Source: a virus. Taken from it: 57,160 bases of DNA. This document shows positions 22,762 through 25,566 of the stretch, piece by piece (positions within the stretch are counted from its first letter, which is position 1; each line of letters begins with the position of its first letter). The notes under the pieces were generated by a model. That model ran no database searches and was not told the DNA's origin. It was given only the letters and a program-made list of their open reading frames with translations. The stretch is taken from positions 133,091 to 190,250 of the IMG/VR virus record IMGVR_UViG_3300037493_005727. One strand, 5' to 3'. The position numbers and the translations under genes are program-made.

Positions 22762-24303
22762 ATGGCAAACTCAAAGCTGCCGCAGAGCAAGAACCATGGA
22801 AGCGCTGGAGCTTCTTCTCGCGGACGGTTTCTTGACAAGAAGTCGTCGAATAAGGGGTGGGAGATCTGCTCGGTCACCAATTACTCCCCGCAAGCACAGA
22901 CCTACTCGGTTGCCGCGGGCAGCGGCGCGCTTCTCTCCGACGTCCCCCGGATGGTGAACGACCCAGGAGAAATCAGCGTTCTTCCCCGCGGCACGGAGGT
23001 CGTCATCCACTACGAGCTCAACGGACGCCCGGTCATCCTCGGCGTGCTCAAGAGCGCGGTCTCCAACGCAGTCGAAGTGAACCCCGCCAGAATCAGTGAA
23101 GTCCGCGGCGTGGGCGGTGAAGACGGCGTGTACTCGCAGGAAGGGGATACGAGCACCAGCAGCAGCCGCCCTCCGAATGACCCCGTTGACATCATCTCGG
23201 ACGACTGGCTGCGCAAGGGCAAACACAACAACTTCGTGGGCGTCTTGTCCGGGGGCACCAACATCTTGTCTTCGAGCCCCATGGCGCAGATCCGTACGCA
23301 CGGGGTCAACGACATGGTGGAGGTGTTTGCCAACGTGTACCGGCACATCTCCGCCCTCGGGAACCTGGACATCAAGAACGACGGCGGCAAGACCTCACTG
23401 ACCTGGCGCGCAGGCGCTGACCAGCTCACCGAGAACGGCGCCAACGCGGAGAACTGGACGCTGCGTCTCGACGCAGGGGCGGAGGGAGACCTCTTCCGCT
23501 TGAGTGTCACCACCCCGCACAACAACACGCTGTGCGAGGTGCACATGAGCGCCGATGGTCGCCTGTCCCTCACAGGGGTCGCCGGGGTCGACATCTCCTC
23601 GGGGACCAACGGCACTGCTCGAGAAGACGTCGCGGCGAACAAGGAAGTCTCAGTCCTTGGGGACATGGCCACGCAGGTCAAAGGGGAAGTCACGGAGACC
23701 TTCGACGCAGGAAAGACCACCCTGGTTGCAACCAACGATGAGGTGTCCGCGGGCAACGACCTAAAAGAAACCGTCGGCCATGATCGGATGACGCACATTG
23801 GAAATCGGCTAGTCACCACCGTTGAGGGTGGTGGGCCGGTTCCTCCTCCAGACACAGGCAACCTGGCGATTCTCTGGGACGCCGTCAACGGGGGCATCGA
23901 GTCCGTGACCGGCAATCCCAAGAGCGGAGGGATCCCCACTCCGAAGCAGTCACAGAACTTCGTGAACTACGCGGGGGACTTCAACTTCGCCGTTCCGTCG
24001 ACCGCGAAGTTCAACCTTCTCTCTACGGGAAATGATTCGGTGATCCTCGGCGCAGACGGCGCGGCGACTTCCACAGACCAAGGCCATACGTTCTCAGTCA
24101 CCATGCCGCCGCATCACGTCTGCATGTGGGAGGAGTTCGAGAAGTTCGCCAACGCGGTCATTGAGTGGTGCGACTCCCACGTGCACCTGACCGCGGTGGG
24201 CCCCTCGGGGCCAGCCCAAGCGGGGGCTACAGGGCCTCTGACGGCGAAGGCCAAGGACAAGATCCCTCCTGTCAAAAGCACCCGCGTACTCGTCGGAGCC
24301 TAA
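22762..24303 (+). CDS. baseplate central spike/hub protein (OB-fold N-domain, HxH apex)
   Basis: The N-terminal 'ICSVTNY...YSVAAGSG...VLPRGTEVVIHYELNGRPVILGVL' is gpV/gp5 OB-like. The C-terminal 'CDSHVHLTAVGPSGP' is like the HxH metal site of P2 gpV-type spike tips. Alternative start ATG 22750. Confidence 0.6.
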   Translation: MANSKLPQSKNHGSAGASSRGRFLDKKSSNKGWEICSVTNYSPQAQTYSVAAGSGALLSDVPRMVNDPGEISVLPRGTEVVIHYELNGRPVILGVLKSAVSNAVEVNPARISEVRGVGGEDGVYSQEGDTSTSSSRPPNDPVDIISDDWLRKGKHNNFVGVLSGGTNILSSSPMAQIRTHGVNDMVEVFANVYRHISALGNLDIKNDGGKTSLTWRAGADQLTENGANAENWTLRLDAGAEGDLFRLSVTTPHNNTLCEVHMSADGRLSLTGVAGVDISSGTNGTAREDVAANKEVSVLGDMATQVKGEVTETFDAGKTTLVATNDEVSAGNDLKETVGHDRMTHIGNRLVTTVEGGGPVPPPDTGNLAILWDAVNGGIESVTGNPKSGGIPTPKQSQNFVNYAGDFNFAVPSTAKFNLLSTGNDSVILGADGAATSTDQGHTFSVTMPPHHVCMWEEFEKFANAVIEWCDSHVHLTAVGPSGPAQAGATGPLTAKAKDKIPPVKSTRVLVGA

Positions 24304-24331
24304 AAAACAGCGCCCCCGTGAGGAGGCGCTG
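24302..24331 (-). terminator. terminator of the leftward 3-gene cassette
   Basis: CAGCGCC / GGCGCTG stem. On the minus strand it is followed by TTTTTT. Confidence 0.55.
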
Positions 24332-24333
24332 CC

Positions 24334-24777
24334 TTACTTCAGGTTCACTTGGCCCACGCCGCCAACCAATATCCCAGCGCTGAAAATTGCGAGGGGCGGT
24401 TTGTCTCCAACGAACAGGCGGAACTCGGGCTCGGGTAACTTCTTGGTGACTACGTCGTAGATGGAGGGGTGGATAAACGCTACCCCTGAATCGGCGATCA
24501 ACTTGATGAGCGCCACTCCGTCTTCGGGGTTCGTCCAGCGGATCCCTTGCGCGTATTCTCCTTCGCCAGGGGGTACGCCGGATCTCCAGGTGACGGCGCC
24601 ATCAATCGCTTCTTCCCATTGTTTGATCCCTGGGTCGAATAGAGCGACAGGCAGTTCCAAGGCGAACCACTTGGAGTAGAGCAGGACAAGGTGGTTTTTG
24701 TCCCCAGCGAGTCTAGCTACCGTGGGCTTCTTTTTAGTTAACCCCCGGAGCAGTTCTACGTCGCTTGATGTGATCAT
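24334..24777 (-). CDS. hypothetical protein (cassette gene 3)
   Basis: 147-aa ORF with no recognisable motif. Confidence 0.55.
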   Translation of the reverse strand: MITSSDVELLRGLTKKKPTVARLAGDKNHLVLLYSKWFALELPVALFDPGIKQWEEAIDGAVTWRSGVPPGEGEYAQGIRWTNPEDGVALIKLIADSGVAFIHPSIYDVVTKKLPEPEFRLFVGDKPPLAIFSAGILVGGVGQVNLK

Positions 24778-25069
24778 CGAAACTCAATACGTTTTTCGTA
24801 AGATGCTCTTCGCAGTTCTCTTCGTTGCATTTCTCACCTCGGACACTTACTGCGTAGTGGTGGTAGTTGACAGCCGTGTCATCGGCGACGTGCTCGATGA
24901 AGTGCTTTTGTTTTTGATGCAAGAGGTACATGGAATTGAGATCCAGGACCCCTGGGGCCACCGTGGAGATGGCCTCGTCCAACTTGTCCGGGAAGGCGGT
25001 GTACGTCAACCCCTCGGGCATCTCTTCTTCTGCTACCGACACAAGCAACAGCAGCCATTTCTTCGCCAT
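24734..25069 (-). CDS. hypothetical protein (cassette gene 2)
   Basis: 111-aa ORF in a locally AT-richer stretch. It has a 44-nt out-of-frame overlap with the downstream gene. Confidence 0.5.
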   Translation of the reverse strand: MAKKWLLLLVSVAEEEMPEGLTYTAFPDKLDEAISTVAPGVLDLNSMYLLHQKQKHFIEHVADDTAVNYHHYAVSVRGEKCNEENCEEHLTKNVLSFDDHIKRRRTAPGVN

Positions 25070-25121
25070 CAGTTCTCCATGTTGTGAGAGGAGCCTGTGA
25101 TGGTGATCGATACTTCTACGA

Positions 25122-25472
25122 CTAGGCGATACGCAAGTGCGGGAAGTATCCTTTCGCGTTCGTATCCGCGTTGTTCGTTCCCCCCGTGATGGTGGTGATG
25201 ACCTTCGTCATCTCGTGTAGATCTACTTCTCCTACCGCAAGACCGCAGCGGTCGTATTTGAACTTTTCAGCGACGTACGCTACCGCGAGAAATCCCTTCT
25301 CTCGGAAGTAGTGCGCCGTGCCGAGCAGCGGAAACGAGACCAACCACGATCCGCCGATGCTTTGAAACTGGTCGGGCATCTTCACGCCGACCGCTTCGTA
25401 TCTTGTACCGTTGCCCGGTTGATGGACGACTTTGACAAAGTCCGGCCCAACGTTGTGGACTTCAGTGCTCAT
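25122..25472 (-). CDS. hypothetical protein (cassette gene 1)
   Basis: 116-aa ORF with GGAGACACC upstream of the ATG. Confidence 0.55.
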   Translation of the reverse strand: MSTEVHNVGPDFVKVVHQPGNGTRYEAVGVKMPDQFQSIGGSWLVSFPLLGTAHYFREKGFLAVAYVAEKFKYDRCGLAVGEVDLHEMTKVITTITGGTNNADTNAKGYFPHLRIA

Positions 25473-25497
25473 AGGTGTCTCCGGCTAAGGTGGTGGT

Positions 25498-25519
25498 GGT
25501 TCAAACGGCTTATACCCTA
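25498..25519 (-). promoter_or_regulatory. class-1 promoter-like motif copy
   Basis: Minus strand reads TAGGGTATAAGCCGTTTGAACC, 25 nt before ATG 25472. Confidence 0.45.
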
Positions 25520-25566
25520 CGCGGTAGGAGTTTTCCGAGGCACCCTTCACGTGGTACCTTGAGCGC

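Follow-up and report, generated by a model that had tools for sequence, protein, structure and literature searches.

Why should three small genes be read leftward in the middle of a rightward virion module? The question is raised by a cassette in a 57,160-nucleotide stretch of IMG/VR virus record IMGVR_UViG_3300037493_005727 (positions 133,091 to 190,250; the whole stretch is hereafter called the window), in which a trio of minus-strand open reading frames (ORFs), designated c116, c111 and c147, fills the gap between the spike gene and the next rightward gene. The original prediction took the trio for an inserted accessory island of the moron type. Our analysis points to a different history: with a probability of roughly 55%, the trio is an ancestral, clade-fixed tricistronic accessory operon of early class, with intracellular products, in an uncultured lineage of phages of ~180-190 kb. 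The window itself is 57 kb of phage-like DNA with a G+C content (GC) of 60.2%. A rightward block, which extends up to ~29.2 kb and includes a head-protease-like gene, a head-decoration-like gene and a gp5-type spike, is followed by a leftward block of small non-structural genes, among them Metallophos, AAA kinase and DnaJ-domain genes.

The trio occupies positions 25122-25472 (c116, 116 amino acids (aa), the first gene of the operon), 24734-25069 (c111, 111 aa) and 24334-24777 (c147, 147 aa) on the minus strand. All three ORFs are present where they had originally been described, and an independent gene caller made the identical three calls on a public contig encoding identical proteins. Metagenomes contain ~46-51 clusters of same-length homologues for each gene, and the proportion of nonsynonymous differences (pN, 0.08-0.33) compared with that of synonymous differences (pS, 0.55-0.92) indicates purifying selection. 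Given the same-length homologues, the low pN relative to pS and the fold of c147, modelled at a predicted local distance difference test score (pLDDT) of 93, c116, c111 and c147 are real genes. A plus-strand ORF at 24698-25087, antisense to c111, was rejected as a real gene because it is absent from the 51%-GC relative L002, while c111 is conserved under purifying selection. An Rfam search of positions 23800-26200 matched no family.

If the cassette were a variable insertion, as first proposed, its presence should differ among relatives; the synteny comparison revealed the opposite pattern. Related loci were collected as three IMG/VR contigs of 168-189 kb found via flanking proteins, by exact-protein look-ups, and by a metagenome scan with spike alignment, and the comparison covered every locus long enough to span the slot with a spike at least 41% identical (~14 loci). 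The trio was found in the same slot and order, on the strand opposite to the spike gene and to g96/g602, in L002, L005, L006, L007, L009, L013, L018-L022, L025 and L027, was partly present in L026, and lacked c116 in L003; one further contig appears to be without a c147-sized gene. Divergence of the trio parallels that of its flanks: in L009, identity is 37% for c111 and 35% for c116, next to 39% for g602 and 39% for the spike C-terminus. The trio nevertheless evolves faster than the neighbouring structural genes, with a nonsynonymous divergence (dN) of 0.36-0.44 versus 0.26-0.30 for the spike and 0.08-0.12 for g251, that is, 1.5 to 5 times that of these neighbours.

Within this stable arrangement, the slot shows a certain plasticity. 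In L003 (10280-10397, compared with 25050-25530 in the window), c116 has been cleanly deleted: the promoter region, the leader, the ATG and a few further nucleotides are kept, c111 follows directly, and short CAC/CCAC repeats mark where the deletion begins and ends. L009, L013 and L027 have gained one or two genes, placed after the promoter and before c116. The extra first gene of L027 (8000-8590) encodes a hydrophobic, membrane-type helix and a coiled coil and has its own terminator of a hairpin and a T-run; a second GGTA-type element, TGGTAGAAG, lies after this gene and precedes the c116 homologue. In an outgroup (L029-L031; spike 33-35% identical, g251 59%), the same gap holds two unrelated minus-strand genes (4922-5550 in L029, 6403-7031 in L030 and L031) for small membrane proteins (68 and 118 aa) that both have a hydrophobic helix at the N-terminus, and GGTAT-type motifs lie upstream. 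These comparisons suggest an old inter-operon slot that accepts leftward cargo, in which the trio appears to have been fixed since the base of a large sub-clade. The layout of an accessory island thus holds insofar as the cassette is an autonomous unit in a slot that is accessory at a deep evolutionary scale; recent, variable insertion does not.

Base composition had been the second argument for insertion. The windowed GC check confirmed that the cassette is AT-richer than its surroundings, with 54.5% GC against a mean of 60.2% across the stretch (standard deviation 2.0, 1139-bp windows), a difference of 5.7 points. Only 0.35% of windows are as GC-poor, and every one of them overlaps the cassette, which is therefore the lowest-GC kilobase. 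This deficit follows each resident genome and is unlikely to mark foreign DNA, the meaning first given to it. In relatives of 51-62% GC, the cassette lies 3-6.5 points under its own genome (in L002, 45% against 51% overall), and in L013 and L009, the two most diverged loci, there is no deficit. GC at third codon positions (GC3) of the trio is 0.67-0.70, compared with 0.72-0.87 in most large structural genes (one has 0.66), and is similar to that of many small leftward genes. Because the GC offset follows each genome, is nil in two loci and is accompanied by a GC3 like that of small resident genes, the trio appears to be resident: its composition behaves like the genes' own amino-acid and codon make-up rather than like foreign DNA.

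The cassette begins with a promoter-like element whose core, GGTATAAG (25509..25516, minus strand), lies 36 nucleotides (nt) upstream of c116 within a 22-mer at 25498-25519, TAGGGTATAAGCCGTTTGAACC. The original prediction assigned this motif to the class of the early block, and the core bears this out. Its general form, GGTATNAG, occurs 12 times in the window, 6-fold more often than the 1.95 copies expected, and none of 100 shuffles reached 12. The minus strand carries 11 of these copies: one is that of the cassette, and the other ten (36.9-56.2 kb) fall within or past the leftward block, mostly upstream of leftward non-structural genes. In every related locus (2.6-17 kb) that reaches across the island's 5' end, GGTATAAG is present as a single copy, always placed 35-66 nt ahead of the island's opening gene, and the most diverged loci are no exception. 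Enrichment against shuffles and, as the strongest evidence, the uniqueness and fixed place of GGTATAAG across relatives mean that the core is non-random, and the element is a likely promoter. The full 22-mer has no other match within 3 mismatches. A consensus scan for a canonical sigma-70 promoter (TTGACA, 16-18 nt, TATAAT) found no site at the cassette; the conserved element there, TATAAG, ends in G rather than T and has no -35 partner. In the leftward block, five copies of a longer shared promoter region were also observed (minus-strand ...TTTTTTAGGGTATTAGACyTTGAGCCAAAG...; 38072-38129, 45013-45070, 45712-45749, 47741-47798 and 48587-48624), three of which share a further 20 nt downstream.

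Between the element and c116 lies the putative 5' leader of the cassette mRNA (25473..25508, minus strand), which consists of TTGAACC, a C/A-rich run ACCACCACCACC (25487-25497) and a Shine-Dalgarno GGAG 7 nt before the c116 ATG. The leader run CCACCACC is kept in L003, L005, L006, L007 and L013, and the C/A-rich run may be a translational or stability element.

At the other end, the terminator claimed for the cassette proved real. Positions 24302-24331 form, on the minus strand, a 12-bp G+C-rich stem (24308-24331) with a 4-nt loop, UCAC, directly followed by a U6 tract (24302-24307), so that the transcribed strand carries the hairpin and U-tract of a rho-independent terminator. The folding energy is -28.5 kcal/mol (z = -3.9), none of 200 shuffles folded equally well, and the hairpin and U-tract are kept in all 5 relatives inspected (L002, L003, L005, L006, L007). 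This U-tract shares positions with the spike stop codon (24301-24303), which is read from the other strand. In the rightward direction, CCTTACTTC comes after the hairpin; because this is no U-tract, the hairpin is a one-way terminator for the cassette. Similar terminator-like hairpins were noted in the leftward block at 37720-37758 and 38977-39015 (AAAA..CCGCCTGTAC[A/G]AGCGCGG..TT), adjoining GGTATnAG sites.

The flanking rightward genes carry promoter-like elements of a different form. The spike gene (plus strand, 513 aa, stop at 24303), whose start at 22762 is taken from the independent gene call, is preceded at 22746..22761 by TGGTATGGT and 7 nt before its ATG, and further upstream by a terminator at 22708-22739. 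On the right, g96 (25567-25857, plus strand) encodes a conserved, very basic protein of 96 aa (isoelectric point (pI) 11.1) and opens a rightward operon that continues with a 585-aa protein and a zinc-ribbon protein; its element, divergent from that of the cassette, is at 25552..25566, an extended -10 form TGGTACCTT with 6 nt to the ATG at 25567. Since both ATGs sit 6-7 nt after a -10-like element and have no Shine-Dalgarno, the spike and g96 transcripts look leaderless. The arrangement TGnTAnnnT, 5-8 nt, ATG is kept in 5 of 5 relatives, and the spike element of L002 has the perfect form TGGTATAAT. Two further observations concern this operon region: the gene after g96 really begins at 25857, which gives 585 aa, and the GTG at 25806 is not its start, and at g417 (27881-27903) TATACT is followed by 6 nt and an ATG. 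The cassette, like the leftward block, has the GGTATnAG form, a leader of ~36 nt and a Shine-Dalgarno. Because it shares these and not the leaderless TGnTAnnnT form of its flanks, we infer that its transcription goes with that of the leftward non-structural genes, a class presumed to be early or middle.

Another conserved feature of the operon is the overlap of its last two genes. The c147 start lies 44 nt upstream of the c111 stop (24734-24777) in the +1 frame, and across 8 loci (the window, L002, L003, L005, L006, L007, L009 and L013) the overlap is 38-53 nt long and always congruent to 2 modulo 3, that is, in the +1 frame. Both frames are conserved, the c111 end ...PPGVN* lying over ...LQGLTK of c147, with a palindrome, GTTAAC, inside. 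None of the 8 loci has a Shine-Dalgarno before the conserved MIT/MID start of c147, in contrast to c116, c111 and most other phage genes, which carry clear GGAG-type sites. Because the +1 overlap is fixed and c147 is without a ribosome-binding site of its own in all loci, its synthesis is probably coupled to translation of c111, which would suggest a joint function of the two proteins. The length of the overlap, its single +1 register throughout deep divergence and the missing Shine-Dalgarno would also be expected if c111 and c147 were partly made as a fusion by a programmed +1 ribosomal frameshift within the 44 nt. We consider such a frameshift very unlikely: the ATG and MIT/MID are conserved, c147 residues 1-10 are modelled at pLDDT 95 within the domain, and the overlap reveals neither a conserved slippery motif nor a conserved stall motif. 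In the window and L002, a stop codon in the c147 frame lies 3 codons upstream of the ATG, so any shift must occur inside the overlap.

What the three proteins do is approached here through similarity, solubility and modelled structure. As originally noted, the products carry no recognisable motif: searches with all three against Pfam, PHROGs, NCBIfam and the anti-phage defence models of PADLOC (E<=1 for Pfam, NCBIfam and PADLOC) gave no match, profile searches against PDB sequences returned noise only (E>=0.13), and neither tblastn of each protein nor megablast of the region matched GenBank phages. No homologues of c111 and c147 were found outside this phage lineage. The proteins have pI values of 5.6-7.0 (c116, 7.0; c147, 6.1; c111 is acidic), and none contains a transmembrane segment, the maximum 19-residue Kyte-Doolittle mean being 0.85-1.49. 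The trio products are thus predicted to be soluble and of intracellular type, and superinfection exclusion of the membrane type, one of the roles first suggested, is unlikely because no trio protein has a hydrophobic segment.

The c116 family is the widest of the three. In addition to 51 close clusters, a profile search of 1.84 billion proteins found 168 representatives at E<=1e-3, almost all of 90-170 aa and with the signature PGNGTRY...WL...YVxEK...D; part of this wider family sits outside the trio context. Against L005, c116 has a ratio of nonsynonymous to synonymous divergence (dN/dS) of 0.09. Pfam searches with 143 distant members gave no shared family. Seven distant members match phrog_34884, a family of unknown function (best E 1.4e-15), while c116 of the window matches no PHROG. 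Matches of the c116 profile to large proteins (DUF285, RCC1, peptidase M20) were dismissed as driven by repeats or low complexity.

Structure prediction and a fold search, which the original prediction had proposed as a check, were informative for c147 and gave no fold match for c111. The c111 model is mediocre (pLDDT 76.7), with a disordered but conserved C-terminal tail ending in PPGVN, and most members conserve the motif YHHYAVxVRGExCx4CExH; a zinc site as a universal feature of c111 was rejected, as the Cys-x4-Cys-x2-His loop is missing in L027. The model of c147 is confident (pLDDT 93.2, predicted template modelling score (pTM) 0.87) and predicts a single alpha/beta domain that appears to resemble one domain of a DNA sliding clamp. 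In BFVD, uncharacterised phage proteins of 150-200 aa rank first among its matches, and phage DnaN comes next. Searches against the Pfam clamp families, NCBIfam (E<=1) and PDB sequences gave no match, so c147 is not a member of the clamp families by sequence, and a literature search for single-domain clamp-like phage proteins found nothing useful.

The nearest cultured phages bear on the lifestyle of the lineage. Among cultured phages, homologues of the structural neighbours g251 (21931-22686) and g931 (18417-21212) were detectable only in Salmonella phage Arash (OQ632216, 180.8 kb) and Vibrio phages D69, D181 and D148 (~187 kb), at 29-36% identity. Since such homologues were found only there, the window belongs to an uncultured group that is a distant sister of these orphan large phages. 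The two groups share the genome size of ~180-190 kb and the g251 and g931 homologues and differ in the trio: neither the spike region of Arash nor any GenBank phage has a detectable homologue of c116, c111 or c147. Arash is a described myovirus whose virions pack their own RNA polymerase and 116 different proteins, including enzymes (PMC10585845). A scan of 185,579 species genomes found no relatives of c116 or of g251, the most conserved neighbour, and thus gave no hint of a host or prophage. Because of this negative result and the ~180-190 kb size of the nearest cultured phages, the idea that the cassette might be expressed from a prophage is unsupported, and nothing in the sequences suggests a temperate lifestyle.

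Taken together, these features are consistent with the following course of events. Early in infection, leftward transcription would start at GGTATAAG and end at the hairpin; c111 and c147 would be synthesised in a coupled manner and act together; and the trio proteins would act inside the infected cell on host or nucleic-acid targets instead of being built into the virion, with host takeover, counter-defence or a replication-associated function as candidate roles. Later, transcription from the spike promoter might not stop at the hairpin, as no U-tract follows it in that direction, and could continue antisense through the cassette and switch it off. Several points weigh against such an early, intracellular operon. 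The whole basis of the label "early" is the class of the promoter motif and the gene content of the leftward block, and within that class the cassette motif deviates: its spacer to TTGAACC exceeds that of the early-block copies by 1 nt, it lacks their T-rich upstream part, and the downstream TTGAACC is common only to close relatives. A GGTA core is common to both promoter forms, leftward and rightward, and in L002 a single base separates them (TGGTATAAG versus TGGTATAAT), so the classes could be less distinct than supposed. An assembly factor or a minor virion protein would also be expected to be strictly conserved within a structural module, and the distantly related Arash packs 116 different proteins, enzymes among them, into its virions (PMC10585845). 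For c111, no fold match was found.

An alternative is that the trio products help to assemble the tail or baseplate, or are minor virion proteins, and that their genes just happen to lie on the opposite strand. Its fixed position between the spike and baseplate-region genes across the clade, its co-divergence with the neighbours and the large number of non-canonical proteins packed by a related large phage would all fit. We nevertheless regard this explanation as unlikely: in promoter form the cassette goes with the leftward non-structural genes and not with its structural flanks, c116 is deletable, and the outgroup keeps unrelated small membrane proteins in the slot. Arash, moreover, shares the g251 and g931 homologues yet has no trio, no structural PHROG or Pfam family was matched, and the trio evolves faster than the structural genes around it. 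A recently acquired moron, in which foreign AT-richer DNA would bring exclusion or anti-defence genes that vary among close relatives, is hardly credible and, for the time-scale of the clade, already largely refuted. The promoter-genes-terminator layout, the lowest-GC kilobase, the ORFan genes and the different cargo of the outgroup slot do recall such an element, as does a mosaic identity of c116, which is 86% identical to that of L005 where the flanks reach 58-65%. Against this stand the unchanged place of the trio in each of the ~14 informative relatives, whose spikes are as little as 41% identical, a divergence that parallels the flanks, a GC offset that tracks genomes of 51-62% GC and is gone in two, a GC3 like that of other small resident genes, and the confinement of c111 and c147 homologues to the lineage.

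The c147 model invites a more specific alternative, that c147 is a single-domain ring-forming clamp with six copies per ring and that c111, possibly also c116, are its partners; the ring might confer processivity on replication or, as the clamp does in T4, activate those late promoters that have a -10 element only. T4 gp45, gp33 and gp55, which form a mobile activator of late promoters, would be the model for the latter. The phage DnaN proteins in the BFVD list for c147 are compatible with this idea, as are the disordered, conserved C-terminal tail of c111, a feature of clamp-binding partners, and the flanking late promoters, which have only a -10 element. It remains a long shot, since c147 is near neutral and has few lysines or arginines on its two helices, its closest BFVD matches are uncharacterised small proteins and not clamps, and, to our knowledge, the PPGVN tail of c111 is unlike known clamp-binding motifs, which counts against it. 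The ancestral accessory operon is thus the reading we carry forward.

Apart from the cassette, one side observation was made in the leftward part of the window: a 45-bp tandem duplication with 98% identity (29748-29837) lies inside the minus-strand gene at 29600-29986 and encodes a repeated basic segment of the KAKAPKAEKK type.

The wider implication is that a self-contained cassette that lies on the opposite strand within a virion module and has a lower GC need not be a recent moron; the present one is best seen as a core, co-evolving operon of a whole uncultured lineage of ~180-190 kb phages. On present evidence, it is a well-documented accessory operon of ordinary type. Its description defines three uncharacterised protein families, c116 (at least 168 representative clusters in metagenomes), c111 and c147, and includes a deeply conserved overlapping pair, c111/c147, whose second member is predicted to be a single, confidently folded and apparently clamp-like domain. 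It also draws attention to a spike-adjacent inter-operon slot in which sub-lineages keep different small leftward cargo. If the trio does encode host-takeover or counter-defence factors, this slot would be a place to look for more.

Three known systems offer points of comparison. At the level of a single protein, the c147 model may be likened to one domain of the DNA sliding clamps, such as DnaN, PCNA, 9-1-1, herpesvirus UL44 and T4 gp45. At the level of the cassette, the obvious counterparts are the morons carried by temperate phages, such as those of lambdoid phages and, among the tail genes of P2, the Z/fun gene. Morons occur in some close relatives and not in others, are often expressed from the prophage and have a composition foreign to the phage. 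The trio resembles them as an autonomous promoter/terminator unit between late structural genes, with lower GC and non-structural cargo of unknown function; it differs in being fixed across a deep clade, in a composition that follows each genome and in the lack of any hint of a temperate lifestyle. Large virulent myoviruses provide the other parallel, as they place early or middle genes on the opposite strand within late clusters, for example T4 uvsY/uvsW beside the baseplate genes. The trio has no sequence or functional homology to any T4 gene, and its timing is suggested by the promoter motif only; like uvsY/uvsW, however, it consists of small non-structural genes set against late genes, with a different promoter class and a position conserved among relatives.

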